Assembly (NCBI GenBank): GCA_963693365.1
Contig: CAVNZM010000016.1
Coordinates: 1-64,000, forward strand
Direction: 5' to 3'
Length of the DNA stretch: 64,000 nt
Source: Amoebidium appalachense
Taxonomy: Eukaryota; Protista; Ichthyosporea
Below, in pieces: positions 4,954 to 31,932 of the stretch. Position 1 is the first letter of the stretch. The number at the start of each line of letters is the position of its first letter. Under the pieces are notes generated by a model that was not told the origin of the DNA, made no database searches, and saw only the letters and a list, made by a program, of their open reading frames with translations. The position numbers were made by a program, and so were the translations under genes.

Positions 4954-5055
4954 ATCTTGATCTTTGACTTAGGATGATCTGCTGAGGCGGATTAGTATAT
5001 GTCAACCCCTCCCCCCCCCCCCCCCCCCCCCCCCCCCCGCGAAAAAGCTGAGTTC
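4255..5055 (-). mobile_element. Diverged Gypsy 3' LTR plus PPT, related to the 9008-9720 LTR
   Basis: Colinear similarity to 9008-9755, ending ...attagtatatgtca at 5004, then C-run (PPT) and aaaagctgagt. Confidence 0.8.
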
Positions 5056-6313: not shown

Positions 6314-6598
6314 GGACCACTTTGGATCTATTTAATAGGCCGATTTGTGGAATGTGGCTCATGACCCATAGGGCCTAGCCCGCCCCATGGGTTTTGGCGG
6401 GAAACTTTCCCCGCCAACGCGTAACACGTGCAGCAGCGTACCACTTTTCCACCAACCCTTAGAAGGGAAAAAAGAGGGTTTTCGCATAAAAAGTTTATTA
6501 CATACAACAATTGTTTGTTAGCTCACGCACATTTTTGCTTAGGTGCAGGATGTGCTGCCGGCTAACGGCCCTACGTGGGCCTGCACAGTAGCGAAAAA

Positions 6599-7132
6599 AT
6601 GGTCCAGAAGTGTAACCACGCTCTCTGTTCCAAAAAACAGAAAAACGGTGTTCCTAAGTTTGTACAAATAAAGGGTCCTGAGTATGCAACTGAGGTTTTT
6701 CTTAGGGTGGGACGCACTGAAGAATGGGTCGAATTAAAGAAAAACAGTAAAAACATGCGGCTTTGCCGCGACCACTTTGATGATGACCAGTTTGAGAATG
6801 GTGACCGTGAAAACAAACCTCTAAAACCCAAGGCCCTTCCGCGAGCGTGGTCGGATGATGTAAGCAACGGACGCCTAGCGGTGCCTGAGGGTGTCGAAAT
6901 ACCCGGGTATAACAAGGAGGAGGCTGAGCGTAAAAGGAAACTAGACACAGAGCGCAGAGAGAGAGCTGCAAAACGAGCGAGAGATGAGATGGTGGAGGTG
7001 AGGAGGAGGCAAAAAAATAAAGAGCACGTATTGGCATGGGTTCGAGGTTCATTAAATGCAGTTGCTTCCCCCCCCCCCCCCTACTCTTCGGTCACCCCTG
7101 CCACTCAATCTTTCTTTTTCCTCTTTGCATGA
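6599..7132 (+). CDS. THAP zinc-finger protein (probable transposase N-terminus; no DDE domain seen)
   Basis: CNHALC...W...RLCRDHF...LKPKALP (C2CH plus AVPT-like box) followed by a charged coiled coil; 3' end uncertain, possible donor GAG|GTGAGG near 6999. Confidence 0.75.
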   Translation: MVQKCNHALCSKKQKNGVPKFVQIKGPEYATEVFLRVGRTEEWVELKKNSKNMRLCRDHFDDDQFENGDRENKPLKPKALPRAWSDDVSNGRLAVPEGVEIPGYNKEEAERKRKLDTERRERAAKRARDEMVEVRRRQKNKEHVLAWVRGSLNAVASPPPPYSSVTPATQSFFFLFA

Positions 7133-7242
7133 TGGATGGGTGTGTGGGAGGGGGGAGGGTGTGTGTGTGTGGGGGGGGGGGGGGGGGGGGGAGGAGGGAT
7201 GGAAGAGAAAGGGTCTGAGAAACAAGATTCAGTGAACAGATA

Positions 7243-7329
<87 letters not shown>

Positions 7330-7600
7330 CCCGGGGGGGGGAGAGCATGGGCTATGCCGTGCTGTTTTGGTGAAGTGGGGATGGGGGGGGGGGGGGAGAG
7401 AGGGGGATCAATATTTCGGAGGGAGGGGGGAGGGGGGGGGGAGGGGGCATCATGGGGATGGGATGGGGGCGGGGGGGGGGGGGCAGTGGGACAGATTGGG
7501 GAAGGAAGGAAGGGGATGTCTTGTAAATGGGTAAGAGAATGATTTAAGCCTGGGCTCATATAAGTATGTGTGTGTGTGTGTGTTTGTGTGGTGTGTGTGT

Positions 7601-7656
<56 letters not shown>

Positions 7657-7662
7657 GTGTGT

Positions 7663-7733
<71 letters not shown>

Positions 7734-8046
7734 TGCAGTGTGTGTGTGTGTGTGTCTGTGTCTGTGTGTCTGTGTGTGTGTGTGTGGGGGGGGGGGGGGA
7801 GGGGGGAGGGGGGAGGGGGGATGGCCCAGTGGCATCGTTACGTCCTGCTGTTCAAGTTAGCATTTGGGCACTCACACAGGAATAGTCGTGACTATGTAGA
7901 AATATATTTCATACTTATTACTCACACCATATATGCGTTATGTTCACATTCATTCATTGTTTACTTTTCACTGTTACTCTACTAGTATGCGGCAAGCGCC
8001 ACTGTTTACATTCTTACAAATTATTCAGATACAGACCGAATATAAA

Positions 8047-9002
8047 TCAGTCATACTTAACGTAAATATTTACAGAATGATTTTCACGAAGTTCTTTTTG
8101 AATCTCTTTCATTCTTTTCATAGGCCCCTCCCCCAACACGGACCACGCAGGCACTTTATATGGAAGGAGGGGCTTCTTGCTCCATTTTCTTTTTACCTTC
8201 GGTGGCTCCGGCTTTTCAGCCTGTTTACGAACCATTTTTCTAAAGTTCCAATCTTGTATGTACTGTGTATGTGTTTCTACAAGCAATCGTGCGTTAGGCC
8301 GCAACCAGTAGCATGGAATCCCAGTGCAAGAGGGGTCTTCATGCGACGCGTGCAACACTATTTGTGTGATGATGGAGCACGTGCAACCTGTGTGTGTACA
8401 GCACTTGCTCTCCCCAGCAAGGCATTTGCAGTCTGTGAAAAGTATCTCCGTTATAACCCCCCCAGTTTGCTGCTCTACATTCTCAGCCGGCGTTGTGGAC
8501 CCCCCTGTTACAGCAAACGCCATATGCACAAGCCTCCACTGCTTGGTATCTCGCACCCCAACGCCGGCACTCTTTGGCACCCGCACCCTCACCATTTGCA
8601 CCACACACGGCGCTGCAGGGTTACACCCTTTCTGCACACTACACACGTGGCCCTTAGTGCTTGCACTAACATTAGACCCAAAGTGCCACCCAAACCCGTG
8701 CAAAACTCTCATGCTCCGCTCCCGCTTGATTCCCTTTAGTACACCTGAGAAATTGTTGCGTGGTTGACCGGTTACATCTCTTGCATGTACAAAGTACTCC
8801 AAAACAACGTCCTCGGGCAGTGTGGGAAGGACATACTCGGATGTCAGTACCTCAAAATCCGTGACCCATCCCCCACGAGGGAACCCGTCGGGTATTGCTG
8901 ATATTGCGATGGTTGGTTTGATGAGTTTATGGATATCAGCCACCTTCGGTGGGTACTCTAAATACTCTCCCCTTGCATATAACTCCGGTGTCCCTGCGTG
9001 TG
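8047..9002 (-). CDS. C-terminal half of Exo1/XPG-SWIM fusion (SWIM-type Zn finger)
   Basis: CKCLAGESKCCTH and SCTGIPCYW motifs; joins in frame to 30573-31611 when the Gypsy and one GCAGC are removed. Confidence 0.8.
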
Positions 9003-9007
9003 GCAGC

Positions 9008-9720
9008 TGTCGTATCCTATTATGTATGTACTAGAGACGCGGCACTCTACTAAGTGTACACACACGAAAAGGAACGAACGTGTACAGAAAAACGGTAAAG
9101 TTTATTCAGACCAGGCTCCGACGGGCAAACTTAGATCCGAACGGAATGAGTCTAAGTTACGACTGAGGCCATCAAGGCCGTGCCCTACAAGATCATCATC
9201 ACCTGGCCCCCTACGATGCCACATTCCGTACATTCCGATCTAACTTTATCGTGCGCCTGCACGAGCTAAGTCGATCGGCTCACACTAATATATTTATCTA
9301 AGTCTCACCCCTCTCCCTTCCCCTAGTGGCACCGCAGAGTCTAATTCTACATTTCATACTATCTCCCTCCCCCCTCCCTCCCCCCTTTCCTCTGTCATCG
9401 AAATATATAAATACGTTTGGCAGCATACACTATCAAAACTTGCCAATATTTACAAAAGGGCCTCTGCCCGAACAATCACATTCCTAAGTCCTCCTACGAT
9501 CTATCCTACACACTAATTAGAATTCTATTGGTCGGCTGTCCCAGCTGACGTGGTCCTGCCCTGCGCCGGCAGAGGCAAGATGATGCACACAGCTGCACAG
9601 CTATCTTGAGGCCCCGGATTTGATCTTGATGATCTGTGGACCCGGGCCACCCCCCCCCCCCCCCCCCCGATCTCGATCGTAGACTTAGGCTAATCTGCTG
9701 AGACGGATTAGTATATGTCA
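9008..9720 (-). repeat. Gypsy 3' LTR
   Basis: Direct repeat of 29859-30572; adjacent C-rich tract 9721-9740 is the PPT on the minus strand. Confidence 0.93.
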
Positions 9721-10170
9721 ACTCCCCCCCCGGCCCCCGGAAAAGCTGAGTCCCACCTCAGTCACATTACATCCATCAGCAAACTTCATCCGGCATCCGA
9801 AACCCATTAAAAACCCATTAAAGATATCATAAACCCATAAACCCATCTTTTTGCCACTCTTTATCCCCCTCTTGTCTTTTAGATAACATAACAGCATCGT
9901 TTTGCTATCACGGGTTTTCTGGATATCATTTTGGTATCTGTTGCTAGATATCAAAATGATCTCATAATGGGCTCATACGGAGCACCCTGAACCCATCGTT
10001 GTTCTATCCTGTGTTCCATGTATTCAACAACCTCGTTATATCCGTATGATACCATTATGATAGTCTATTTGATATCATAAAATCTTTTTAGTCTGATGTT
10101 CAGAAGCGTTTTAGACATAATAAAGATATCTCTAATAGCGGATTAGGAGCCCTTCCCCATATCCTTATGG

Positions 10171-10269
10171 TATACTAAACACGCGTAACTACGACCTGTT
10201 TATTAGATGTATTGATTGGCTTGAGAAACACATCACTACAAAATTATAGCGCACGCGCACACACACACA

Positions 10270-10320
<51 letters not shown>

Positions 10321-10360
10321 CCAGCTGATACCGAGTGTCCCGAGGGGAGCCCCTTTAAAA

Positions 10361-10416
<56 letters not shown>

Positions 10417-10611
10417 GGGGAACCCCAACTAATTGATTTCTCCTTGTAGTCTTTATGGTGTCTCGTAGAGAAAGTAAACCCTGATATATAGTCACCACCC
10501 GACATCTATGTACGTGATCATGATATACCGCTGAGGGGATATTCCGAGCAAACCCCCCCCCCCCATACCTGAGACTGGTTCTCTTTGCCTCGAGTAAACA
10601 GCGTAAACCCC
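10171..10611 (+). mobile_element. 5'-truncated LINE (3' end only)
   Basis: Near-identical to ~14629-15068. Confidence 0.9.
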
Positions 10612-11235
10612 TATCACATATCCTTACGATATATATGATAATCGATCATAAGATACATATATATCTATATGATATCATTTCGAGGTCATTATAGGAGGTT
10701 TCGTATATGGTAATACATCTATAAGATACTATTACAGATGTCCTTTTCATATACAACGGATAGGTATAGGATGCCGAAAACATTATCTAAAGATCATACG
10801 TTAAATGTCATAACGATATAAGCCTCATAACATAAAGATAACTAGGATGGGTCAAAAGAAATTTCGTAATAATATCGTTTTGATAGTTTTAGGAGCCTTT
10901 AAAGATATGAGAAGTTCTGGCTGTATGTCCTCTACACGACATCTTTCTAGTATCTGTTACATATCGTTAAAACATATAGTAGTTTATCAGCTAACCATTC
11001 CTTATGATATTAGTAGCATATCGTTAACATAACTCTGTCACATCTTTTTGACATACAGCACATATATCAAAACGATAAATTTAAGGTATAATTAAGATTT
11101 ATTAAGAATGATTTTCGCAATATAGTTATATTATCCTTTTCATATCATTATGTTATGTCTTGATATATATGATTGAGCCATTTTCAAAGTTGATATCATC
11201 CAGACGTCGTTTCCGATCACTGTTTGATGTCGTTT

Positions 11236-11267
<32 letters not shown>

Positions 11268-11391
11268 CCGGCCCCCCCCCCCGCCCCTCACCCCTTTCGA
11301 ACCTGCCTGTCACGTGGTCATATGTCGTCGAGCCGCTGATTACAGATCCATTTTCTGCAGACACGTCCCACTGGAACGTGTCAACTATAAC

Positions 11392-14300
11392 AAACGCCGA
11401 TGCGAGATGGAAATCGAGCTCTTCTGCGAACTGTTCGCGCTGGCGGAAGGTCGTGCATACGACCCCGTAAGCGACAAGTGGGAACCAACCCCACAGGTGT
11501 CGGACCAAACCGATGCCTAATTTATCCTTCTTCTTCTGGAATGCTCGGACACTGGGCCCCCAAAAGGGCCTCCCCCCCGGGACACTCGACGATAAAATCA
11601 GCTACATACAACAACAGACAAACAACCACACGTTTACAGTGATTTGCGAAACACAGTTTAAAAACCACCACAAATTCAACTCTACATTGGTCGACACATC
11701 CACACACCCCGGTTACGCGAAAAACCGAGGCATTATTGTACTTGCCGCACCACACGTGAGAGTGAAGTGCAAACCGGTAGCAAAAACGGAATTCTCGGTT
11801 TCTATAGAGTTTCTTTCTAATGTTTTTACTTTTGTATATTACCCACCATCTATGTCGGTTGTCGAATTGACTCACGAGTTGTCACAGTTACCAATGTCCA
11901 CTGTTATTTTAGGTGATTTTAACACGCGACTCCACCACACAGACACACTGCAAGTGAGTGTCGGGTACCCATCTAAGCCCCCGGAGCGTGCTATCCCTTT
12001 AGCAAGGTATGTCCAAAGTCACACTTTGCGGTTCCCTCAAATATCCCATGCCCACAACACCGACTGGGGAGTGGCCTTTTGGCCATCAACCATGTCAAAA
12101 CTCTCTCTCCCTCCTAAGCTCTCTAGGTCATCTGACCACTCTCCTATCCTTTTCCTACCTAAGATCTCCCTTGATCTGCTCCCCCCTCCCCCTCCCACCT
12201 TTCGCCTCCGTCTATCCCAGCTTAAGTCACAGTGGGGTAGAGTTGATGTATGTGTATGCTATGCTACGAAACACCCTATATATATGCGCCTATTAGAATC
12301 TGCACAAGCCAGGCCAGATTCACATCTCGTACTAGATACATGCACTAACTTTATTGTTGATGATTTGATAGATCTCGGTGATTATGCTGGCGGTGGTAGG
12401 AAGGAATATCCCGATGCTCTCTTGTTACCAAACACCACTCCCGCTAGACTAGGTGAACCCCTGTCTCAAAAGGAAAGCTTGCGCCGGCTTGCTAGTATGA
12501 ATCGATTTGGCCCCCCTGCTCGTATTATTGGTGATACCACTGGAGACCCCCTCATAGACTCTGATAAGTATTTCTCGGAACTGTTTAAAGATAGGACCCC
12601 CGCTCAGAAACCTATTGTGTGGCCTGTAGACCCATCTATCCCCATAGAATCGATCCTCCCCTTTTTCAGTCCCGATGCCATATGGTCTGTGATATCTAGT
12701 TATAGCTCTAGTAAGTCTTGTGGACCTGATGGACTCCCTGCTGGGTTTCTTAAAATCCTTGTTCCCTCCTACCCACAAAAGGAAAGTGATCGTGCTATTA
12801 AACCTGATCTTACTATCATGTTAAGCTCTCTCTTTTCTTGGTGTGTTAAATGTGGACATGTCCCGTCATCTTGGTTAGATACCTTAGTGATCCCCATAGT
12901 TAAGAAGGACTCTGAGGGCCCCATATCATCCTTTCGCCCCATTACACTAACCCAGGTTGTTCGTAGATTCTTTGAAGCTTGCTTACTTAGGTTATTTGCA
13001 CATCACCCTAGGTTTCAATCTATTCTTCACATACACCCATGCCAATCCGCTTTTCGTAAAAACAATTCATGTTATGTTCAAATAATGGCACTGCACGATT
13101 CTATGCAAGTTGGTGCACAATATGTTGGCTTTATTGATTGGAAAACTGCTTACGATTCTGTCTCCCCTGGTCTCCTATGGGAAAAGCTTGCTGCACGGGG
13201 TGTACCACACTGCATTGGTGTTCTGTTAGAAGCACTCTTGTCTCAAACCTATGGTAGAGCTGTGGTTAATGGGCATCTTTCATATGGTTTTGCTCCTACT
13301 AGAGGTCTCTTGCAGGGTTCATTGCTTAGCCCCTTTTTGTTTAACCTATTTATAGATGATTTGGCTGTCAAGATTTACGCCGAAAACGATGACCCTATTA
13401 ATAACTTTCCGCCTGCACTTCTCTATGCTGATGATCTGTCCCTCCTTGCCCGTACCCCTAGACGCCTGCAAAGATTGTTCGATGTAGTGTCAGAGTGGTG
13501 CAAGGCAAACCTTATGATCCTTAACATAGACAAATGTGGTGTTCTTGTACCTGATATAGCTAACAATTTACACACATTTACATTATCATCTAAACCTGTA
13601 CCTATAGTTCCAGAATACAAATATCTTGGTGTTCCGGTTGATTCTGTTGGTGTTATGTTTCCCCATATGGTCGAAAAGAGGGTAGAGTTGGCTCGTAAGC
13701 GGTTAGCTTTCTTCTCGGCTAATATTTTTAAAGACACACCCCTCCATCCTTCTATTAGACTTACATTTATTCGCACTTTTGTCTTCCCGGCATGTGAATA
13801 TGGTTTACCCCTTCTCGCCGCTTGGATCAAGAAAGAGAGAACTAGAGCGCTTAAACCCTTGGCAAATTTCCTTGAAGCAGAAGTTGCCTCCTTTCTATCT
13901 AACAACTGTTGTAAACCTGGGCCTGTAACGCTCTCGATATATGGTCTGGTCCCAATAGCTGCTAGAGTATCCTATCTCGCGCTGAAATTCAATAAGCACA
14001 TAAGCCGCTTAAAGAAGTATTTGCCCTCCCACCCTCTCTTCTCTATCCGACCTGTCCCCTCCTCACCTCTCCCCTCTTTCCTCCCCTCTCTCTCCCCTTC
14101 TCCCCTGGGCACAAATACAAATAAACCCCGCAATAGTGTGTGTGTGACTTTAGACTGCCACTTACTTATTAAACATGTACACAATCACAAGATAATCACG
14201 CAATATAACAAATGGAAAAAGATACCACACGACACTAGACCCGATGAAAGCATACACCTTGAAAAACTAAGCCTTATGTCTCGTTTTATATATACTGACC

Positions 14301-14727
14301 GCCTCAACCATATTGCCAAATATGGCACTCGCAAGTGTATAACACCTAAATACATATTACCTTCCTGTAGAACTGGTCTTTCTCTAGCTGATGGTATTAT
14401 TGATCAATTACCACGCTTTTACTGTACACGTGCTATACAGTGGAGATCTAATAAGTATAAGGTGGCATCATTTGCATGCCCAAACAACACACACACACAC
14501 CAGTTTAACCGGTCATGTATCGCCAAATGTAGTTTGATAGACCACATAATACCGCAACACACACACGTCACATTCACAACAGACACCCAGAAAGATAGCC
14601 TACCTGTAAATTACAACATCCTTGATTTTATACTAAACACGCGTAACTACGACCTGTTTATTAGATGTATTGATTGGCTTGAGAAACACATCACTACAAA
14701 ATTATAGCGCACGCGCACACACACACA

Positions 14728-14766
<39 letters not shown>

Positions 14767-14798
14767 CCAGCTGATACCGAGTGTCCCGAGGGGAGCCC

Positions 14799-14874
<76 letters not shown>

Positions 14875-15068
14875 GGGGAACCCCAACTAATTGATTTCTC
14901 CTTGTAGTCTTTATGGTGTCTCGTAGAGAAAGTAAACCCTGATATATAGTCACCACCCGACATCTATGTACGTGATCATGATATACCGCTGAGGGGATAT
15001 TCCGAGCAAACCCCCCCCCCCATACCTGAGACTGGTTCTCTTTGCCTCGAGTAAACAGCGTAAACCCC
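11392..15068 (+). mobile_element. 5'-truncated APE-type LINE with intact ORF2
   Basis: TSD TCAACTATAAC 11381-11391 / 15069-15079; ORF1 3' end plus ORF2; ORF1 stop overlaps ORF2 start (ATGCCTAA). Confidence 0.92.
11513..14707 (+). CDS. LINE ORF2: APE endonuclease plus reverse transcriptase (1064 aa)
   Basis: WNAR, ICET, GDFN, SDHSP (APE); GPDG, FRPITL, DWKTAYDSV, QGSLLSP, YADD, YKYLG (RT). Confidence 0.95.
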   Translation: MPNLSFFFWNARTLGPQKGLPPGTLDDKISYIQQQTNNHTFTVICETQFKNHHKFNSTLVDTSTHPGYAKNRGIIVLAAPHVRVKCKPVAKTEFSVSIEFLSNVFTFVYYPPSMSVVELTHELSQLPMSTVILGDFNTRLHHTDTLQVSVGYPSKPPERAIPLARYVQSHTLRFPQISHAHNTDWGVAFWPSTMSKLSLPPKLSRSSDHSPILFLPKISLDLLPPPPPTFRLRLSQLKSQWGRVDVCVCYATKHPIYMRLLESAQARPDSHLVLDTCTNFIVDDLIDLGDYAGGGRKEYPDALLLPNTTPARLGEPLSQKESLRRLASMNRFGPPARIIGDTTGDPLIDSDKYFSELFKDRTPAQKPIVWPVDPSIPIESILPFFSPDAIWSVISSYSSSKSCGPDGLPAGFLKILVPSYPQKESDRAIKPDLTIMLSSLFSWCVKCGHVPSSWLDTLVIPIVKKDSEGPISSFRPITLTQVVRRFFEACLLRLFAHHPRFQSILHIHPCQSAFRKNNSCYVQIMALHDSMQVGAQYVGFIDWKTAYDSVSPGLLWEKLAARGVPHCIGVLLEALLSQTYGRAVVNGHLSYGFAPTRGLLQGSLLSPFLFNLFIDDLAVKIYAENDDPINNFPPALLYADDLSLLARTPRRLQRLFDVVSEWCKANLMILNIDKCGVLVPDIANNLHTFTLSSKPVPIVPEYKYLGVPVDSVGVMFPHMVEKRVELARKRLAFFSANIFKDTPLHPSIRLTFIRTFVFPACEYGLPLLAAWIKKERTRALKPLANFLEAEVASFLSNNCCKPGPVTLSIYGLVPIAARVSYLALKFNKHISRLKKYLPSHPLFSIRPVPSSPLPSFLPSLSPSPLGTNTNKPRNSVCVTLDCHLLIKHVHNHKIITQYNKWKKIPHDTRPDESIHLEKLSLMSRFIYTDRLNHIAKYGTRKCITPKYILPSCRTGLSLADGIIDQLPRFYCTRAIQWRSNKYKVASFACPNNTHTHQFNRSCIAKCSLIDHIIPQHTHVTFTTDTQKDSLPVNYNILDFILNTRNYDLFIRCIDWLEKHITTKL

Positions 15069-15992
15069 TCAACTATAACTCATCTATTATCTTTTACGTA
15101 GGGTTATGTCCCACTGGGGCGTGTCTGTCACTTCAAATATTTTCTAAGACAAATATTTTCTAAGACAAATATTTTTAAAGACATGTCCTCGGGACATGTC
15201 TTCACACAATTTATTCGAACTACGAAAACACACAAAATAAATACACAGACACACACAAAATAATAATAATAATAATAAAAATAATAAAAAGCTCTGTTAC
15301 TTTTTCTCTTCGCACACACACACACAAAAAAAAAGAAAAAAAGAAAAAAAAAAGAAAAGTCACTCTTTTGTGTGTGTGTGGGGGGGGGGGGGGGGGGGGA
15401 AGGAGTATAAAAGAGCAGCAACGAACATAAACAAAACTCAAAACAAGCAAACTATTATGCGGGTTTCTAAGAAGCTCCCAACATCATTAAACTAAACACA
15501 TGCTAATCCCTTGACAGAAGAGTAACAAGGTGTGTGTGTATGGGTATGAGGCCCAAAAAAAAAAAAAAGGACGCCCAACATGACAATATAAGGGGGGCAC
15601 TCTTACACCAAACCATACCATACCAAATGCCGGCAGAGTAATTAACAGGACAAAGAGCCGGTACCCACCTATGGGTGCTAAACATGCACATGATCATTCA
15701 TGTGCTATAAGAGCAACACAGAAACGAAACACGGAAACAACAGCAGCCATAGGACAAAGAACCAGACCCACAGGGTCTTGCCTCCATACTTTATTTACCT
15801 TAACAGGACAAAGAGCCGGTACCCACCTATGAAACGAAAAACGGAAACAACAGCAGCCATAGGACAAAGAGCCGGTACCCACCTCTAGATGATAACGTAG
15901 CCTTATAGCTGCTGATGACTTCATGGGCCAACCTTGCCAAAACCTGTAAAGGAACTCGAGCTAAGAATTAGCTCATCCTACTTGCGAGAAGT

Positions 15993-16024
<32 letters not shown>

Positions 16025-16882
16025 GAGGGGGCTGACTGAGAGTGGCAAAAAAAGAGTCGACAGAACCAACCTTAAACATAGTAAGGACGGAAACCCGGAC
16101 CAGAACTTATGAAGTCTAGAGAAGCAGAAAATAGCTTGAACGATCGGTGGAGGGGATGATAGCTATAGTGCTAACAGCAAAAGTAGTGCCCACAGTCGCT
16201 GGTTCATGAACGTGAAAGGCAACGTGCATCTGCAGCCAGCAGACACACGCACACGCACGCACGCACACACACATACACACACACACACACAGACACAGAC
16301 ACAGACCAGACAGACAAACGCCATATGCACAAAAGCAGGCAACACAAAACTAACCTTCAAGAAGAAGCTGCAGCATGCAGCATGGTCCAAAACAATCAGC
16401 ACGGTGGCTGCGCGATCTGCGGAGGGGATCTGTGACCAGGCGCTGCGGGAAGGGAACTGCGACCAGGCGACCTGCGGGAAGGGACCTGCGACCAGGCGAC
16501 CTGCGGGAAAGGACCTGCGGACCTGCGGGAAGGGGGAAGAGAAATGGAGAAAACAACGTGCGTACAGGCTTAAATGGAGAAAAAAATTGCAAACCGGATT
16601 GGGATTTAGCCAATCACTATTCGCCGCGCCTGATTAGGAAAAAGATAAAAATAGATTTCGGCTCGCGCGCGCGCGTGCATCAGCTTGGTGCCCTTAGCGC
16701 TACCCTTAGTGCCCTTAGTCACAACTATCAGACTATAGTTACGTGTCCTCCACTTCTTTGTTCTTGACCATTTTTTCGGCATGAAAGGGTTTCTGTTACT
16801 TCTTGCTGTCCTTCTTAGCGTGCTTGCTTGTCTTTTTTTCAACATGGGTGTCACTGGCGCTTTCGACTTCTTTGAAATCACA

Positions 16883-16913
<31 letters not shown>

Positions 16914-17444
16914 GCGCACGCGCGCACGCACACACACTCACACATGCACACTGCACACACACACACACACACACACACAGGCGCGCACACACAGGCACGC
17001 ACACACACACAGGCGCACACCTACACAACACACACAGCACATGCACACACAAGCGCACACACGCACACACCCTGTTATCCCTGATCATGATGCCCCCTCC
17101 CCCCTCCCTCTTCCCCCCCGCGCACCCCCCCCCCCCCCCCCCCACCCACCCCACCCACCCACCTACAAAGACGAAAACATTGTACATGTATTGCATACAC
17201 AAATATACTCGCACATATACATACACACATTCACTTTAATCTTTCAGGCTACATGTGCAATATACATTAATTATGCACAGTCGATAGAATTCGTTGTGAA
17301 CCCCCCCCCCCCCCCCCCCTCCCCCCTCCTCGTTCCCCCCATATGCAATGGGGATAATATTGTTTCCCGCTATTAATTAAAAAATCACCGTTCTAACTTC
17401 TTAAGACCGAACCACTTGTAACACCGACAGTTTCGGTTGTGTGG

Positions 17445-17484
<40 letters not shown>

Positions 17485-17594
17485 CCCACCCACCACCTTA
17501 CCAATATTGAGGTGTACACTGCCCCCACATCCCCAACTGTGTGCTGAATATCCCGTGCTAGGAAACCAATAACGTGAAAGTAACACATGCCGCA

Positions 17595-19507: not shown

Positions 19508-19618
19508 TGCTACAAGGGAGGAGATATTTTATGAACGGGAGAGTGAGCCGAGAATGTGTAGATAAAGAACAGAGGAATATCGAGGCAACCGTGGTGTACC
19601 CTGTCTTTATGTGAACAC

Positions 19619-19650
<32 letters not shown>

Positions 19651-19717
19651 CTCGCGCGTTCGTGTCTACCGATGTACGTGCACACGGGCATGTGTTTGGG
19701 TGTGTGTATGTACGTGT

Positions 19718-19771
<54 letters not shown>

Positions 19772-19797
19772 AGGTGCGCATGGTAACGTGTGTGTGG

Positions 19798-19875
<78 letters not shown>

Positions 19876-19908
19876 CAACGTGCCTGTGTGTGTGTGTGTG
19901 TGTGTGGC

Positions 19909-19939
<31 letters not shown>

Positions 19940-22664
19940 AGGGCAACGTGTCTGTCTGTGTGTGTGTATCTCTCTCTGTGTGTGTGTGTTTGTGTGTGTG
20001 TGTGTGGCAGCGTGCGTGTCTCGCTGTGTGTGTGTGTGTGTGTGTGTGTCATGATTGACGACATAGGTTCAGAAGAAGAGTGTGTATCACTACGTTGCAG
20101 TTTTCACATACTTTGTAGTTCACGCGCGCGGAGGCATAATGTTAACGTGCGTTACCGGTTATAGAAAGCACAAGCGTAACTAGCGTTTTATATCATAAAT
20201 AGTCATAAAATGGTAACGTTCATTATAACTACGATGCATGAGAATAGAATGATATCAACAATACATACATTAGATATCGTACGGATATCTTGCGATATAT
20301 CATCTGGTGTCCGGAGAATGTGCACGTGCCTGTGATGTGCACCCGCCCTAATGCAGTAAGGTATTGTTTTCAGGCGCTAATAAACCTTCAAAGGTGGTAA
20401 CATCCTCGGAACACACAAAATATAAAATTGCAATAAATAACCATTTTCCTGCTTCGATGCTCGAAATTGGTACTATGTAGTTACTAGATTGCTCTATTTT
20501 GCCTAGTGTTTAGTGTTTCGGACGTTCGCAATTTACACTCTGCCACATGGCACTTGCCAAATGGGGTAATTTAGTTTTATTTGCGGCCGTTGTGGTTGCG
20601 TGTTTATCTAACAAATATCATTATGAGATGTTTATGACCCCTGTGGGATATGTACAAGATCAGACCATAGAAGATCAGGTCGTTGCGATGTCGTAAAGAT
20701 GGCAGAAACATATCTTCATTAGATGTATGCGATAATCTCAATTAAACATGAAACGTGATTGGCTGATCACAGTTGGGTGACCCTGAGCATGCCGTTTTGA
20801 AGAATAACAACCAATCAAAATCGGGTTTGCCATTTTGTGATTTTCGTCCCACAATCGAACGGAAAAGTGATTTCCTGGCCCTATATAAATGGCCATGCCA
20901 CCATCACATTCAGATGGCCGCAATGAGCCCCGCAATGCCCCGTGTGAGTAATTGGCGGGTTTCCCAACGATTGCTCAGCTGGCTTGATCACAAAAATTTT
21001 CTTTGCGCGTATATCGCAACCATTCTCATCGGACATCTAAAGGATTTTTCGATTGTTCTTCTGATATCTTTCTAATATCCACAATGCTGCCGTTTAGATA
21101 TCACATTGATGTACTTACAAAAGACACTGACCTTCTACTGCACGGATGTTCTTCTGATATCTTTCTAATATCCACAATACTGCCGCTTAGATATCACTGG
21201 GATGGCAAGCTTATGTATCATATACTTATGAATTCGATATATAAATATATCCCTATGCGGATATCGCAATGATAATCTAAGGGCCTCTAAAAGATATGTA
21301 GATGATACCTCGTGGACTACTGCTCTGGACAGATTAGGATATTCAAATGATAGGTTACAGCATATCACATTGATGTACATAGCGACATCTTACCGATATC
21401 AATCACACAACACACTAGTCTTTATTTAGATATATCAGGTACATATCCTTACGACGTGTACAAAGATATGAATTAGATATCGTAGCTTGGGCCTGCAAAG
21501 AGGCAGTTGTGATATGTTTGAGATGTAGGACCAAAAACAGATAACATATTGAATATAAAAGGGATATCAAAAAGAATATCAAAAGGATACCCACAATGCT
21601 GCCGTTTTAGACAGAGCGGGATATTCAAATGATAAGTTACAGCATATCACATTGATGTACATAGGGGCATCTTACACATACCAATCACATATATCACAAG
21701 TCTTTATTTAGATATATTTGGTACATATCCTTACGACATGTACAATGATATGAATTAGATATCATATCTTGGGCCTGTGGACAAAGGGATATCCGAAAGG
21801 ATATCAAAAGGATGTCTTCAACATGCCTACTGGTTGTGTACAAGGGTATCTTCTGGATTACCCCCATGGGCGCATAACGATATCAAAAAAATGGTTGTAG
21901 GTACATCACAACGATGTCCAGACGATATCAAAACAACATCTGTATTATATTCAATTTATAAGCATACATGTTATCCATCAGATATCACGTGGATATCAAT
22001 TTGTATTGTCCCACGACATCAGGTAGATATCGTCATGTAATGCGTATTGGATGGGATTAAGATATTCTATAATGAGGGATATCTGTAGGCTATAACAAAG
22101 ACATCTAACAGATATCGTTTGGGGCACCAATATCCTAAACGTATGTGAAACATATCCAAAAGAGCTATTATGACCTTGCTAACATACATATCACTAGGAT
22201 AGCATATGGATATCATAATGCTATGAGGAAATTTTGAGATTTTCGGTCAAAAACCAAAACCATCTTGGTTTTCTATGATATCGTAAGGATATCGTAAGGA
22301 TATCAGCAAAGGATGGGTTTCGGATATGCGCCATACCATAACCAATCCGAACCCTATCAAAGATATCATTGATAGGGATCTGATGGGTTCTATCCGGGAA
22401 TTCTATGATATCTTGTCAGGCTCTTTTTGACGTATTTAGGGTGGGGTTTGGTATGCCATATATCAAAATGATATATAAGATGGGTTTCGGATGCCGGATG
22501 AAGTTTGCTGATGTCTAACACCCCCTAAAAAGACATAGACTAATCAGTCTCCTAAAAAACTTAAATTAAATAAATTACGAAGAAAAATAATAAATTAATC
22601 TACACCATAAGCTTGATACCTACGGAGACACCTATGATAATAAATTAAATTCCTACGACTACGT

Positions 22665-24720
22665 TCACACTCCCCCTCGGTCTCCTCCCCCCCCTCCCCC
22701 TCCCCCCGTGTGTCTACGTGTATTTGCATCACTCCCCCCCCCGGCCCCCTCCCCCACCGACTTTTTCACACCACGATTAAACTGAGGAATAACTCTCTTC
22801 GGCCTAGAGGGAGCACTAGGCAACTCCCTCTGCACTAATCTAGCCTCATAAGCACGAATAGAAAACGGGCAATCCAAATGAAACTCAGGCAACCACTGAT
22901 CTTCCTGATAACCACCCTCAAAACGAATTAAATAATAATTTACCTTACCTTCCTTACCTTCGATAACCTTTTTATCCATAATTTTATCTACTGCAGCCTC
23001 CGATACATCCACCGACCCGTCATAGTCGGGGGTGAATGCATCTAACACTCTACGGCCCTCCGGCCGTTTTACCCTAAGGGCCCTATCATAATATTCCTTT
23101 ATATCATCTACATTATAAAATCTAACATCACTCTCATTATCTAACCTCTGCACCTTATATGCCGTCGGACCTAACCTAGCCACTATTTTATACGGGCCAA
23201 TGAAAAGAGGCAACCATTTCTTACCATACTTACGAAGACCTTCACCTTCACCCTTACCTTCCTGCTCCTGCTTATATCTCTTTTTCCTAGTATGATCCCT
23301 AATTAAAACTAAAGTACCCTCGGCAAATTCACGTAACAGACGTGTGGACACGTCTGCACGTGTCTGTGCCTGCTGTGTACGGGCCAGAGCTGCATCACGT
23401 GCAGCCCGGGCCCGGGTTAGTAGCTGCTCCCGGAACTCAGTCCAGTGGGGATAAGTTAGTCGGTCAGCCCCCCCCATCGGCAAAAGTGCCGTATCTAACA
23501 AACTCATAGCCTCCTGCCCATAGACCAAATAAAACGGAGAAAAACCAGTCACAGCATGAGGGGTAGAATTATATGAATGAGCAATAAACCTAGACATATG
23601 ATCCCAATCATTAGCCTCCACATCCACCATTTTGCCAAAGGACTTCTGAAACACTGCATGCACACGTTCAGAGATGGCATTTGCTTGAGGGTGATATGCA
23701 GACGTAGTGATATGAGCTACCCTTAAAATTTTGCACACCTCCGACACCAACTGATTTAAAAACACACGACTCCTATCCGTTAACAAAACACGAGGACAAC
23801 CAAACCTAAGACAAATTTCATCCACAAAAATACGAGCAAACAAAACGGCATTAGCAGTGGGGAGAGAAAAAACTTCAACCCAACGAGTGGCCACATCGGT
23901 GACGGTAACAAGAACAGTGTTACCCTCAACCGTAGAATTAAAAGGACCGACCACATCCACTGCTACCCTTTCAAACATACAAACATTAAAATCCCTAATA
24001 AACGACGGGCGGGAACGAGAGTGGGGACTCTCATTCCTTTCCTGACAATGCATGCATGACAACACATAATCCCTCACCTCCCTACTCATACCCGGCCAAA
24101 AATACGAACGATTAACACGAAGCAACGTCCTATTTACACCTAAATGACCAGCCATGGGATGCTCATGCACCATATGCAAAACCTCAGGCACAAGTGCCGT
24201 CGGGACCCAAACTCGGTGTCCGTCTGGCCCAGAACAATGATAAACTAAATCCTGCTCTACCTGACACATTTTTGCTAACTTAGCTACCTTAATCATCTGC
24301 CTTTTATTTTTAAATTTAATCGAATCAACCGGCCCCTTTAAATAATTCTTAACCAGACCAATCAACACATCTTCCTCCTGAGCTAAGATCAAAGCCGTAG
24401 GTGCTAAGGCAGGGGCCGAGCCATGAGACTCGGTCCCGACCTCAGACACTGACAAATACCTCCCCTCCCCTCCCCTACACTTATAAGCAAGCAACCCCGG
24501 AACCCAAGAAGACACATCAACAGACACAGCATCTATTCCTTTCTGCTCACTCCCCCCCCCCCCCCTTCCCCCCTCCCCCCCCCGTCTCTCACTATCCCCC
24601 CCCTCCCCCTCCTTCTCTTCTTCAAACAAAATATAAGCAGCACGAGAGAGAGCATCACAGTCAACCATTGTTTCACCCTTGGCATAAAACAATTTATAGG
24701 AGAACTCACCGAGAGCCGCG
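22665..24720 (-). CDS. Gypsy pol C-terminus: integrase plus chromodomain
   Basis: HEHPMAGHLG...C..C, VDVVGP, TDR, YHPQANAISER, FIGPYKI (GPY/F), YYLIRFEG...QWLPEFHLDC chromodomain. Confidence 0.92.
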
Positions 24721-24721
24721 G

Positions 24722-25202
24722 TGTAAACAACTGTACACATGAACTGTACATGTTTACTAAAGAATGTGATCTACTAGCACACGATTCGTGCTTTGTCATG
24801 AATATCACATAAATATTATGTCCGCACCAATAGGACTCACTCTGACCTAAGAATTGAACCATATATGGTTCTTCCGCTGCATACCACATAAACGAAGTGA
24901 ACCAATAAGAGGTTTGCATAAATAGGACGAAGGTCTGACTGGCTCGGACCGCACCAGAATCACGAATGGCATGTTGCCACCCGCGCTGGCCGCGGATGAA
25001 CCAATCCTGGGCCTTGATCCGAAACCTGGGGGCTATATAACAAAGCCGTCCCAGTACGGGGATCACATCAGTGAAGTCTTGAGACAGACTGAGTCGGCCC
25101 ATAGTAAAAGCAACCTGGCCGCGTGTGCCTTTCTACCCGTTCTCTGTCTTTATTTTGATTCAGTTGTACTCTGCCTTATCCTAACTAGTCCAACTGTTTA
25201 CA
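24722..25202. mobile_element. Solo LTR of another family inserted in Gypsy pol
   Basis: TGTAAACA...TGTTTACA ends; 5-bp TSD CGCGG 24717-24721 / 25203-25207; TATA-like ctatataa at ~25033; removal restores WAAALGEF. Confidence 0.85.
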
Positions 25203-27810
25203 CGCGGCCCACTTCTGCATCCTCTCGTTGACCAGACGAGTGGTGCCGGCCATGGCTAGGCAGGGCTTGTGGTCGGTGTAGACCTCAAACGTCCTGCCTG
25301 CGAGTATATACCTCCATGCCTGTGAGACTGCCCAAAAGATAGCATGGGACTCTCTCTCTGGATTGCTATATCTACGTTCACTTTTACTAAATGAACGACT
25401 AGCATAAGCAATCACCCTATCCTGCCCCTCCTGCACTTGATATAACACGGCCCCCTCAGCAACCTTACTTGCATCACACCGAACTTTAAACATCCCCCCC
25501 CCGGCCGAAAAATCAGGATGAACAAGCATACTCGAAGACTGCAAAGCTAACTTAAGCTTTTCGAAAGCAGAAACAGCATCAACATTCCAATCTATTCTAC
25601 TCTTCTTCTCCCCCCCCGTCTGACTAGTTAACGGCAAAGCAAGCATACTATAATCCTTAATATAACGACGAAGATAATTAGTCAAACCTAAAAATTGCCT
25701 TAGTTGAGTGACAGTCTGAGGACGGGGCCACTCAACTATGGCCCGGATTTTCTCCGGATCAGGGGAAAGACCATTACTAGACACAATATGACCTAAAAAC
25801 TTAACCTCCGGCACACCAATCACAGTCTTGCTACCGCTAATACGGAGACCAGACTCACCCAAAGCTAAAAATACTTTTTCACAATTATTAACTAACTCCT
25901 CAAATGACCTACCTTTAATTAAAACATCATCCAAATAAGGGTGGCATACGTCCAAATGAGGGTGGAGAATTTTATACATTACCCGGCACAACATAGCTGG
26001 AGAGGAGAGCAAACCCATCGGCACCACCTTGTACTGGAACAGCTGGTCACCCAGTGCAAAGGCAGTCTTCTCCTTGCTGCTCTCCTCCAACCTTATCTGC
26101 CAAAAAGCTGCTTTTAAATCAAGTTTAGCAAAGTGAGTATAGCCGTGCAGCTGTGAAAGCTGCTCGTCTATGTTAGGGAGAGGCCATTGGTCTGCCTTAG
26201 TGATCCGATTCAGAGCCCTGTAATCGTTCACTAGACGCCAAGACCCGTCGGGATTCTTAACCAATAGCACCGGACTTCTCCACGGACTCGAACTATGCTC
26301 CACATGACCCTTTTTTAACATATCACTCACTATTATTAGTGCATCGACAATTTATACTGCTCCATTCTATAGCTAGGCATCACTACCGGCCTATTATCAC
26401 CTGTGTCGATCTGCATTTCAAACCCTTTAACGAAGCCTACTTCGTTATCATCGGCCAGAAATGCAAACCGAGTCCTATCAAATAACTTAGCTAGCAATTT
26501 TTTCTGTTCTACCGTCCAATCCCCCTCCTTCATACCAAACGGCAATACTAACTCCGGCTTACCCCCATCACAAGTGGATGCATCCTTATTCACCGGAGTG
26601 CCACTTAACATTTCACCTCCTGTATTACATCGGTGCTGCTCGGGGTGAGGTTGAGGTACCTCCGGATATAGGCGGTCACCCTTAGCACCCCCCCCTCCCC
26701 CCGGCACACCAATGCCCCCGGGCAATTCCTGTTGAGTTAGTGCATGTATGTGGGGGGCCAGGTCTGTGGCCACCCTGCCCCCCACGGTGTTGGTTAACCC
26801 GTCAGATCCACGGGTTAGACCAACACCCTCCCCCCCTGCCTGCACATTCTCACACCCGGGGTGACCCTCCTTCCTCTTGGGGGTCGGGGGAGTGGGACCG
26901 GTGCTGTCCCGGTCCCCCCCCCCATCGTGTCGGGTGACATTTTGGTGGCTAACGTTAAATAAAGTTGTTCCCCCTCCTCCTGAGTCACCCTTCGAGCCGG
27001 CATCCTCCTTTTGGGTAATAAGAGAGACCTCTATACTACCAATCTCATTAGTGAAACTACCGACGGAAACACCTGACCTAATCACTATAGGCTCGATGCC
27101 CGGATTCACTAATTCTATTTCTATGTCTTATCCGGCCATACCCTACTAAGGGTCCATTGGGCCACCTCCTGAAATGGGGTTTTCGGAGTAAAAACCCCTA
27201 AATCCCCTATCCTAACATGATTGCCGGCCCGGACACGTACCGTTTTGCACTGATAAGTCTCGATTACTACTTCAGCTACCGTTCTAGCACCAGACTGATA
27301 ACCGTCGAGCCCATCATGGGTTTTAATTTTAACGCCGGACTGCAATTCTAAAACATTCGTACGTTCAAACAAAGCATTCACATGTCTACGGAAAAATGGG
27401 GCTCCCAACAAAACACTTTGAGCTAAATCCTTAACCACATAACAAGCAATATGCATAGCCTGGCCACCTATCTCACACGGCAACACACAAACACCTTCCA
27501 CAGACATACTACTATTATTAGCACTACCTAAGGCTGTGCTAGAAGCATCTAAAATAGGAATTTCCCCCCCGGCCTGATTAAACCGACGAATAAACGAAGC
27601 ATGCACACAATTAACCTGAGCCCCTCCATCAAGCAAAGCAACAGCCTTCAACTTACCATCAGCTAACCATACGTCTATATAATGCCGGCTAAAACCAACT
27701 AAATCCTCCTCCAATTCAAGCAACACATCATCACTCACACCCAATCCCTGCCCACGAAGACTCACACCCTCGATACCTACGTGCAACATACCTACCTGTG
27801 GTGCCTGCAC
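25203..27810 (-). pseudogene. Gypsy pol protease-RT-RNase H, disrupted
   Basis: LLDGGAQ protease; SPWRSP, DYRALN, YLDD, FLGH, CDAS, TDHKP; frame breaks near 27130 and 26340. Confidence 0.9.
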
Positions 27811-28375
27811 GGGTGGGGTGGGGTGTGTATGTGGTGTGGGTGGTGGTGGAGTGTGTGTGTGTGATGTGTGGGTGGGTGGTGTGTGTGTGTTTGGTGTATG
27901 TGTGGGTGTGTGTGTGGGTGTAGGTGGGTCTGCAACCGTCGTATGTTGTTGTGGTGGTGTGTTTCTACGTGTCTGTGCTTTCCCCCCCCTTCCCCCTTTA
28001 CTCGTGTGTGTCCCCCCCCCCTCCCGGAAACAATGGCACAGAAACCCCCTCCGGTGTGGTTAGAACAAACACCGGGTTGGGACAAGAAACACTGAGACCA
28101 TCCACTTGTGGCCGGGGAACCTCCCCCAACCACAAAACATTCACACCATTCATACCTTTGGTAGAGTCACCCCACAAACATTCATGCCATACCACCTCGA
28201 CGCTGTCTTGAGGACCCACGACGATGCCCGGCTCCCACACGTATCGGGGCGGTGAGGGGGCAAAGGGAAGCTTAACCTGGGGTGGGGGAGGGTGAAGGTT
28301 CTCTGCAACCTGCGGGGGACCGATACTGTCCCCCCCCCCTCCCTCAGTGACCCCAGCTTCCCCCTCCCCCGGAAC

Positions 28376-29710
28376 TCAATAGCTCTTGTAACTACGGCAA
28401 TATGCAGCAGAGTGCCCTTGCCGGCCACAAAAGTAACATGCACCAAAGAAGGGGCCAGGGGGGACTTCAAAACCTTGGCGCAAAGCATAACCGGGAGCCC
28501 GGTCATGTTGGGGGGGCCCACCGTGTGCACCACGGCCCCCCCTTCCCCCCTGCCCCCCTCGGCCTCTCTCACCACCATTTCCACCCCTCCCTCTACCCTG
28601 CCCAGCACCACGAGCAAGATAAGGGGCAAACCTCTCGGTGAACTGCTGCTGTTGTCCTCCACGTCCACCTCGGCCACGACCGCCGTGTCCACCCCGGTCG
28701 CCGCCACGGCCACCCCGGAAGCCGAAGCCCCCTCGGCCCGAGAAGACGGCCTGGGAGAGCTCGGCAACCTGCTTGACCAACATGGTGAGTGCATCTGGCT
28801 GTTCACCCTCTTTTTTCTCTTTTTCCCCCTTCTGTCCACTCTCCTTCTTTTTCTTGTCTACTTCCATCACCTCCTTTTTATCCCTCTTATTGAACTTCAC
28901 CTCGTGCATGGCAAGCAAGTGACGTTTAACATGCAACACCACCTCATCTACCTCATCACGCTCCCCAAACATGCGTGCAGTGTCTGTGTTTACTGAGAGA
29001 GCCTTACGAGCAAACTCGAATTTTTCCCTATCACTCACGTCACCAGCTAACTCACAAAGGTCTTCAAAGACCCGATATTCCCTCTCAAAGAATGCACGAG
29101 CTTCTACGGGGGACATATCTAAAGTGGGAAAGGTATACTTCCATTCTCTGAGCTGGGCCCGGAAGGTACGGCGCCGGTCGGCCGTCAGGTATCGGCCGAC
29201 GAGCCGGGCCGTATACTCGAGCTCGTTTTCCGGCCGTGTGAAGGTCTCGAGCTCCCCGTCCACGTCGTCGGTGCTGTTCTCGTCCTCGTCGTCGGGGATG
29301 AACCGTGCGGCCAGACGTTTCTGGCCGAGTGTCCGGGACACCATCTCGTCCCTCCCCTCGTCGTACTGCTGCTCGTATATACGAGCCGTCACCTGGGGGG
29401 CCTGCTCGGCCCGGTACGGGTGCTCCTCCATCAGGGTGCATAAGTCGGCCATTGTTTTGTGGTCGATGCACTGTTTGATCATTAAGCACGAGGCCGCCAC
29501 AGTGGGGGCCTTCTTTGTGTCTAACACTAGTGTGGGTGTGTTAGCTAGGAGTGTCCTAAGCCACCTAGGTATTTCCGAGTCGTGTTTGAGTGTAAAACTG
29601 AAAGCTGTGGTCTGTCTAACGTCTAGTGTATGAACCTGTGGTACCTGTGTGTGCAGGGAGCTATCCTCCGCTGCCAATACGTAGAACATGTCTACGTTAA
29701 ACTTAGCCAT
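28376..29710 (-). CDS. gag: Gypsy Gag (444 aa)
   Basis: RGG-rich region and CYFCGRQGHSAAYC zinc knuckle, downstream of 5' LTR. Confidence 0.88.
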   Translation of the reverse strand: MAKFNVDMFYVLAAEDSSLHTQVPQVHTLDVRQTTAFSFTLKHDSEIPRWLRTLLANTPTLVLDTKKAPTVAASCLMIKQCIDHKTMADLCTLMEEHPYRAEQAPQVTARIYEQQYDEGRDEMVSRTLGQKRLAARFIPDDEDENSTDDVDGELETFTRPENELEYTARLVGRYLTADRRRTFRAQLREWKYTFPTLDMSPVEARAFFEREYRVFEDLCELAGDVSDREKFEFARKALSVNTDTARMFGERDEVDEVVLHVKRHLLAMHEVKFNKRDKKEVMEVDKKKKESGQKGEKEKKEGEQPDALTMLVKQVAELSQAVFSGRGGFGFRGGRGGDRGGHGGRGRGGRGGQQQQFTERFAPYLARGAGQGRGRGGNGGERGRGGQGGRGGRGAHGGPPQHDRAPGYALRQGFEVPPGPFFGACYFCGRQGHSAAYCRSYKSY

Positions 29711-29738
29711 TGTGGGGTGTTCGGGTGGTTGTGTTTAT

Positions 29739-29769
<31 letters not shown>

Positions 29770-29858
29770 CTGTGTGTATGAGGTGTAGCAACAGCCCAGA
29801 AGGAACTGTCACCGCGTTACCCTAGCGCGAAAAACTGCACTAAAAGAAAGGTGTAGCT

Positions 29859-30572
29859 TGTCGTATCCTATTATGTATGTACTAGAGACGCGGCACTCTA
29901 CTAAGTGTACACACACGAAAAGGAACGAACGTGTACAGAAAAACGGTAAAGTTTATTCAGACCAGGCTCCGACGGGCAAACTTAGATCCGAACGGAATGA
30001 GTCTAAGTTACGACTGAGGCCATCAAGGCCGTGCCCTACAAGATCATCATCACCTGGCCCCCTACGATGCCACATTCCGTACATTCCGATCTAACTTTAT
30101 CGTGCGCCTGCACGAGCTAAGTCGATCGGCTCACACTAATATATTTATCTAAGTCTCACCCCCTCTCCCTTCCCCTAGTGGCACCGCAGAGTCTAATTCT
30201 ACATTTCATACTATCTCCCTCCCCCCTCCCTCCCCCCTTTCCTCTGTCATCGAAATATATAAATACGTTTGGCAGCATACACTATCAAAACTTGCCAATA
30301 TTTACAAAAGGGCCTCTGCCCGAACAATCACATTCCTAAGTCCTCCTACGATCTATCCTACACACTAATTAGAATTCTATTGGTCGGCTGTCCCAGCTGA
30401 CGTGGTCCTGCCCTGCGCCGGCAGAGGCAAGATGATGCACGCAGCTGCACAGCTATCTTGAGGCCCCGGATTTGATCTTGATGATCTGTGGACCCGGGCC
30501 ACCCCCCCCCCCCCCCCCCCGATCTCGATCGTAGACTTAGGCTAATCTGCTGAGACGGATTAGTATATGTCA
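29859..30572 (-). repeat. Gypsy 5' LTR
   Basis: Direct repeat of 9008-9720. Confidence 0.93.
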
Positions 30573-31611
30573 GCAGCCGCTTGTGTGCATTTTCTACCGA
30601 ACCCGCAAAATCAACAAACTCAGGAACGACACCGTGTGGAACCGTGTAACGGGTGACAAACTTTTTGGTGGCCGGGTCATAAACAGCCTGGAAGCGCATG
30701 GCAGCATCGGTGCGGGAGTGCATCCACAAGAAATCCGCCTCTGTTGTTTTATATTTTTCCTTCGAAGCAACCTCCTCCGCAAGTGAATATATCGAGTCTT
30801 CGTTCACTGTATTTATCAGTTTGACGGCTGTAGACCACCCGACGGACGGTATCTTGGCATTGTAATCTGTGCCTACCATTTGACAGGCCCATTGAAACTG
30901 GTTAATGCTCATGTTAGAAAAGTCACAACCGTTTTTGTGCTCACCCCTGTGGTCACGCTGAATGGTGTCGTGGCTGACTACACACCCCATTGCCGCCATC
31001 ACTTTCTGCTTGTTTTCGTCCTCCGTTTCAGCGTACGTGTACTTGTATATGAGTGAGAGGTGTTCCATTTCACTGCCGTAGTAAATGTAGTCACTGTCCA
31101 ACGCAATAATGTGATCTATGTGGCCTATTTGTTGTAGGTGCAGAAGTTGGTGGTCAGCCTCGTACGGTGCGAGTATGTATTCTATCGCATTTGCCCGCAG
31201 TGTGTCCATAACCAGGCGTACCAGGCCGGAAGGGGGGCTGACAGCCTTAGCATACTCTCCGGCGTTGTATGCATTCTTCTTGTTAGTAATTCTTTCAGCC
31301 CTCGTGTGCTCTTTACTGGGTGCCGGTTCTCCATCAAAAGCACACACCGGAATACAGTTGAGCTCTGAAACGTATGAACTAATCTTTTCCAGAATGGAGT
31401 TTGTGATGTTTGCCCATATTTTGGATGGCATGTTAATGTTGTCGTGGTTGTATTTTGCTACGTGTTGGGAAAAGGTGGACTGAGCGATCACGTTGTATAT
31501 AACGGTTGACACGTCAATGCCTATTCTATGACCAGAGAGTGAGTTGGGAAGAAAGCAGGCGCGTTTCTGTTCTGAAACGCCCAAAGCAGGCAGTAAACCT
31601 TCGACACCCAT
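30573..31611 (-). CDS. N-terminal half of Exo1/XPG(FEN1-family) nuclease-SWIM fusion
   Basis: MGVEGL, GIDVS, AFDG, K..T...R, APYEADHQL, DSD, GTDY, helix-turn-helix IPSVGWSTA, FQAVYDP. Confidence 0.9.
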
Positions 31612-31932
31612 GGTGTATTGCGAGTGTTGTGAAAGTGGGTGTGTGATTCACTCAAAGATCAGCCCAATTTTTTTTTGAAAAACTTAAACATAAAACTACA
31701 GTTAAAGAGACAAACATTTCGCAAGTTTATGCTTCACAGCTACAGTATGACAGCGTGTGGGAGTCGAAGCGAACGTGAAGGCTTTATGTAGCTGCACACG
31801 AAACGTTGGCGTGGGCTAGTTGTATAGTGCTGGGGACCGCCGTCTGATTGCAGGCCCTATGGCTGCCAACCTCGGGAGTTTGAGCGAAGTAAAAAATTGA
31901 TCGATTTTGGTATAGTAGATCCAAAGTGGTCC

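Follow-up and report, generated by a model that had tools for sequence, protein, structure and literature searches.

The first 64,000 nucleotides of contig CAVNZM010000016.1 from Amoebidium appalachense (GCA_963693365.1), which form the window analysed here, contain a transposon with terminal inverted repeats (TIRs) that is probably an internally deleted, non-autonomous member of an ISL2EU-like lineage, with an EXO1-fold 5′ nuclease in the place of YqaJ. We hold the identity of the element itself with good confidence. The element carries a THAP open reading frame (ORF) and a convergent ORF for a 664-aa XPG/EXO1–SWIM protein, and lies in the long terminal repeat (LTR) of a Copia element; a young Gypsy retrotransposon now interrupts it. 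The features are as follows, with the strand in brackets.

6083..32468 (−), Copia solo LTR serving as the host target, flanked by ACAAG on either side and split by the element
6312..6313 (+), AT target-site duplication, left copy, supported by three unbroken LTRs that show the empty site
6314..6330 (+), left TIR, 17 bp, starting with GG
6366..6376 (+), subterminal motif CCATAGGGCCT, 11 bp, left copy, candidate transposase-binding site
6599..7132 (+), THAP ORF, 177 aa, Pfam THAP
7068..7820 (no strand), intron-like block of microsatellite and G-runs
8047..9002 (−), 664-aa ORF, 3′ part, with a SWIM-type zinc finger and then an SCTxxxCxW motif
9003..30572 (−), young Gypsy (LTR retrotransposon) that contains nested inserts and breaks the nuclease ORF
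30573..31611 (−), 664-aa ORF, 5′ part, an XPG_N/XPG_I EXO1-type nuclease
31852..31862 (−), subterminal 11-bp motif, right inverted copy
31916..31932 (−), right TIR, 17 bp
31933..31934 (+), AT target-site duplication, right copy

Joining 6314–9002 to 30573–31932, which removes the Gypsy, leaves an element of 4049 bp, the size proposed in an earlier note on this DNA, and restores a stop-free minus-strand frame of 664 aa from an ATG at 31611 to a stop at 8047. Pfam recognizes XPG_N (27.4 bits, cut-off 22) and XPG_I (39.1 bits, cut-off 24.9) in the nuclease half; the SWIM half has no Pfam match, the SWIM call coming from a CxC-x8-CxH motif at about 8392–8430 and from homologues, and no YqaJ domain was matched by Pfam in the ORF. 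Together with the Pfam match of the THAP ORF, this bears out the claim of a THAP ORF on the plus strand and a convergent Exo1–SWIM ORF on the minus strand. All ten EXO1 landmarks are kept, comprising seven acidic metal ligands (D33, D93, E151, D153, D172, D174 and D249), Gly2 (G2) and two basic residues of the arch (K100 and R107), and all ten are also present in the relatives P0016 and P0007. These residues were mapped through P0004 from human EXO1 positions, taken in part from PDB and Foldseek comparisons.

The top PDB sequence matches of the window protein are to human EXO1 (E = 3e-13). The EXO1/FEN1 fold match was made on a model of P0016, not on the window protein: Foldseek placed EXO1 best (E = 7.6e-18, template modelling score 0.74 by target length), ahead of FEN1 and XPG. 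Model confidence (pLDDT) was mostly 70–90 in the nuclease part of P0016 and below 50 in its tail, and was 35.8 for the SWIM half of the window protein. The 664-aa protein is predicted to be an apparently intact EXO1-type nuclease with 5′–3′ exonuclease or 5′-flap activity. Eukaryotic EXO1 (Rad2/XPG family) has the same XPG_N and XPG_I domains and every catalytic landmark and is the top match in both sequence and fold, although identity to it is only about 23–33%; unlike EXO1, which has a host tail, the window protein has a SWIM-type tail, lacks an intron and lies inside TIRs.

The element is genuine and sits at the position given in the earlier note. As reported there, the TIR (GGACCACTTTGGATCTA, GG…CC) is perfect over 17 bp; it lies at 6314–6330 and, inverted, at 31916–31932, and within three mismatches it was matched at only these two places in the window. 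At the filled site the sequence is ...GTCT AT [element] AT ATTTG..., and three unbroken copies of the target LTR (5622, 49832 and 54946; minus strand) give the empty site as ...G(T/G)CT^ATATTTG. All three empty sites show that the 2-bp AT was duplicated, in agreement with the duplication claimed earlier from uninterrupted LTRs. Blunt entry of a TGG..CCA element at A|T is formally equivalent to an AT duplication, and from one site only the two are indistinguishable; we reject TGG..CCA ends with duplication of TA, which would need an empty site 2 bp shorter. The subterminal 11-bp motif, found at both ends, is a candidate transposase-binding site. The target Copia solo LTR is identical to intact Copia LTRs (49277 and 54391) in 757 of 765 columns, and the Gypsy LTRs (9008–9720 and 29859–30572, with a GCAGC duplication) differ by one mismatch and one gap in 713 columns. 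The nesting sequence, oldest first, is Copia solo LTR, TIR element and Gypsy, and the TIR element is a recent insertion.

The copy in the window is non-autonomous, without a transposase core. Its THAP ORF scores 25.5 bits over the first 133 codons and 23.6 bits as a whole (Pfam cut-off 23.9), contains a splice-donor-like GAG|GTGAGG at 6998, and is likely the 5′ remnant of a transposase gene; the microsatellite and G-run block behind it may mark the place where the DDE exon or exons were lost. A second exon spliced through an acceptor at 8123 was considered and rejected, as it yields only about 39 non-DDE codons. The element has 19 stop-to-stop frames of at least 80 aa, of which 18, including the THAP and XPG–SWIM frames, entered the domain scan; the remaining frame is a 103-aa plus-strand frame spanning the Gypsy junction.

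The XPG–SWIM architecture recurs outside the window. A search with the SWIM half against 1.84 billion representatives returned nine matches, two of which have XPG domains upstream of SWIM (P0005, 41% identity, E = 4e-34; P0007, 28% identity, E = 9e-7), six of which are short SWIM-like fragments and one of which, P0006, is a chance match to a bacterial repeat protein. With these two distant XPG–SWIM relatives (28–41% identity) known from outside the window, XPG–SWIM is, judged by sequence, a family and not a one-off capture; the earlier note had named a one-off capture as one outcome that would undo its reading, and independent proteins combining XPG and SWIM were found instead. The P0005 cluster has 11 members, whose full-length forms of 623 aa lie on contigs of 4079 and 4077 bp, close to the size of our element, a coincidence that is suggestive only; P0016 lies on the 4079-bp contig, and P0007 on one of 2353 bp. 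The tails of the XPG–SWIM proteins align with four of the six short SWIM-like fragments at 97.9%. Neighbours in the ESM Atlas are eukaryotic SWIM clusters (0.93–0.94) and, beside P0016, a 111-member cluster of 658-aa XPG proteins, scored apart from two XPG clusters of about 380 aa (0.80); diatoms are commonest among its 13 members with a phylum, which serves as a lead.

Other collections gave little. No XPG–SWIM locus appeared in scans of viral, metagenome and prokaryote collections, and this SWIM tail was missing from every one of the 80 top-ranked EXO1-like metagenome loci, out of 505 confirmed in 34 of the 64 parts of the collection. One word-based homologue search gave a single fungal EXO1 and two gave nothing; the third of these covered only proteins of 1149–3280 aa, so that its null result argues weakly against fused forms. 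None of four window ORFs compared had an exact match in the protein collection. For trees, 70 distinct domains from the 80 loci were combined with 4 queries, and removal of 25 rows for length and 16 near-identical rows left 33. The window protein and P0016 were paired in both 33-row trees (100/98), and P0007 joined them with a support of 91 in the quick tree but, for the careful tree, in only 11% of bootstrap trees. Both trees have long branches and, with no FEN1/XPG outgroup, give neither a root nor a direction of transfer.

Public sequencing runs contain further forms of the element. Part of its right half is present in 14 of 24 listed run rows from four studies, one of which may be the source of the window, and four runs were examined for matching contigs. 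A contig from run X1 equals 30573–31219 without a difference over 647 bp and continues into 25 letters of 8978–9002; because it crosses the Gypsy-free junction, a form without the Gypsy exists. Depth in this run climbs towards the right end (242, 473 and 760; depth, not copy number), which hints at shorter derivatives. An 1801-bp contig from run X2 would, if collinear, end at 7849 beside the microsatellite block, a position derived from its length only, and the same run holds a second right insertion flank, reading AT-A, so that the target context is known from one full site and one half site.

The link to a transposase comes from run X9, in which a 760-bp contig fuses 31222–31839 to a loose end of 147 letters. 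Its last 30 letters, which do not occur in the window, encode CAFLTNFQRP on the THAP strand; two ISL2EU transposases published in the PMC9179366 supplement have C-termini that each match this peptide at 5 of 10 positions. Four of the five ISL2EU transposases there reach this tail region: two fit C-x2-[LM]-x-N-[FY]-Q-x-P, one has the proline one position earlier and one stops early; Harbinger entries that reach it mostly have L-H-N at this place. Among 1,441,232 control windows the strict tail motif occurred 0 times and the loose motif 7 times, a chance of about 2e-4 for the loose motif over 24 of the 61 loose ends shown. The contig points to a sister derivative that has kept DDE and lost the nuclease, on evidence that is good but not conclusive, since the motif was set post hoc and the contig is single. 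It is the deeper contig of the run (71.8 versus 5.5; depth, not copy number).

Two further observations concern these runs. A 1419-bp contig of run X9 matches 31853–31930 with eight differences, has unrelated letters on both sides and may be a diverged or truncated relative. Deep contigs of X1, X2 and X9 share differences from the window within 31231–31839, for example at 31231, 31340 and 31808, and because of these the window copy seems either to be a rarer version within a multicopy family or to come from another strain.

ISL2EU elements of the PHIS superfamily (PMC4482050, PMC4122938, PMC9179366) duplicate AT in an A-AT-T context and have TIRs of 6–259 bp starting with GG. Besides a transposase with THAP, HTH and DDE parts they carry a second ORF with YqaJ, the role of which is stated to be unknown (PMC4482050). 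This second ORF is kept across the ISL2EU families, and most listed YqaJ ORFs are about 480–650 aa. Our element agrees in its AT duplication (three of three empty sites), its short GG-starting TIRs, its THAP domain at the start of ORF1, its overall size and a second ORF of similar size, and a contig of run X9, probably from a sister copy, may share the transposase C-terminus over 10 codons. It departs in having an XPG/EXO1 fold N-terminal to a SWIM finger where ISL2EU has YqaJ, in lacking HTH and DDE_Tnp_4 in the window copy and in its T-AT-A context. Because YqaJ and DDE are absent and the context is T-AT-A, we do not file the element as ISL2EU. The earlier note's interpretation as a whole is supported, with the missing DDE domain and the T-AT-A context as caveats, and none of its statements was refuted.

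On domain content, the EXO1-fold nuclease likely stands in for YqaJ, and we infer that it has replaced it, which suggests that these elements likely need their 5′ ends trimmed. One Atlas row (score 0.87, with Viral_alk_exo in 13% of members) and a possible YqaJ-like start at the end of P0012 are leads, no more, that the short SWIM-like fragments come from second ORFs of the YqaJ type. As a separate observation, one Spy transposase (PMC4122938, supplement file 2) seems, by eye, to end in a degenerate SWIM-like motif; if this is true, SWIM would be a wider PHIS feature.

Kolobok elements offer a precedent for the swapping of accessory nucleases in DDE transposons. Their lineages have differing accessory nucleases (lambda-type, DEDDh and His-Me), and KolobokE and KolobokD are DDE transposons whose RR..YY termini fit our element; they duplicate TTAA, whereas our element duplicates AT, and no XPG/FEN1-fold accessory is named in the available passages, where ‘XPG’ occurs zero times (PMC9587614). 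Among the papers listed by full-text searches, which did not extend to Repbase or Dfam, no description of a transposon with an XPG, EXO1 or FEN1 accessory was found.

Under our preferred reading, a THAP-HTH-DDE transposase supplied by a complete or DDE-keeping sister copy would bind the TIRs and the subterminal motif and carry out cut-and-paste into AT. The SWIM module, presumed common to the second proteins of ISL2EU-type elements, would bring the nuclease to the transposition complex, where the nuclease would resect the 5′ strands at the excision break. The gap would then more readily be repaired by homologous copying, which restores the element at the donor site, and repair that broke off early would leave internally deleted derivatives like those seen. 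This specific role in resection at the donor break is a tentative proposal, to which we give somewhat less than an even chance.

Several observations weigh against this reading. A complete copy with both DDE and XPG–SWIM was not seen in the window or in the run contigs examined, and no DDE or HTH_Tnp_4 domain was matched in the 18 of 19 element frames scanned. The DDE link consists of 10 codons in one contig of one run, matched by a motif framed after the match had been seen, and the link to YqaJ consists of the Atlas lead and the P0012 motif. The three XPG–SWIM nucleases do not group in the careful tree (11%), and the T-AT-A context differs from A-AT-T. Finally, a second nuclease is absent from Harbinger and Spy elements and so is not needed superfamily-wide.

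This last point counts against an alternative role, in which the nuclease would cleave the non-transferred 5′ strand at both element ends, the DDE enzyme alone being unable to excise the element. TnsA does this for Tn7, EXO1 and FEN1 enzymes have been solved on 5′ flaps and recessed ends (by their structure titles), and the second ORF has been retained across ISL2EU families, all of which would fit such a role; the related Harbinger and Spy elements nevertheless move without a second nuclease, for which reason we prefer donor-break resection over obligatory second-strand cutting and consider the latter rather unlikely. An improbable alternative is a standing two-part system: no complete element would survive, and elements with the nuclease and THAP would depend on others that carry DDE between the same ends, and these on them. 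The intact 664-aa ORF of a DDE-less copy, the Gypsy-free form in reads and the greater depth of the X9 contig that has the presumed DDE tail without most of the nuclease are what it would produce, and the transposase-less family ISL2EU-6_HMag, which retains the nuclease ORF alone, is a precedent; the same data are explained by ordinary internal deletions of one autonomous element.

That the nuclease is passive cargo, a host EXO1 gene captured once by a non-autonomous element, is very unlikely: the closest named relatives are indeed host EXO1 proteins, but the domain has a long branch in the trees and reaches no more than 31% identity even with its closest match, which is again of the SWIM type, the SWIM tail is missing from all of the best 80 EXO1-like loci, and the XPG–SWIM fusion recurs in two unrelated protein clusters. 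Less credible still is a DDE-free class of element, in which THAP would bind the ends, the XPG nuclease excise and host repair insert. The window copy did insert cleanly with only THAP and XPG–SWIM ORFs, yet in run X9 this element end is joined to what looks like the DDE tail of an ISL2EU-type transposase, and duplications of a constant 2 bp typically result from DDE strand transfer, a reaction that XPG-family enzymes are not known to perform.

A far-reaching extension of the preferred reading, which we regard as unlikely, is that the element represents an undescribed, widespread PHIS branch in which an EXO1-fold nuclease is required for transposition, was gained by the swap of an unrelated 5′–3′ nuclease onto a conserved SWIM module, and is here split into mutually dependent nuclease- and DDE-carrying elements. 

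If two structurally unrelated nucleases of the same 5′–3′ polarity do occupy the slot of the ISL2EU second ORF, this would suggest selection on the activity and not on the fold. The window copy offers a frame that is uninterrupted once the Gypsy is discounted, and catalytic mutants of EXO1 are well defined, making a role for the activity testable; nuclease genes of such elements are also at risk of mis-annotation as host EXO1.

The window holds several other repeats. A DIRS-like retroelement with reverse transcriptase and tyrosine recombinase lies at 38443–43623, with inverted and direct repeats at 34582–34937, 38158–38514 and 43053–43404, and an imperfect palindrome of about 300 bp lies at 35301–35600. 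A young Copia with LTRs 99.87% identical (49277–55158) sits in a long interspersed nuclear element (LINE), another copy of which, 94–99% identical, occurs within the Gypsy at about 10161–15068, as does a tandem array of units of about 185 bp, 87–96% alike (17595–19507). An older relative of the Gypsy LTR (4254–5022, 80% identity) adjoins another Copia LTR at 5055–5831.

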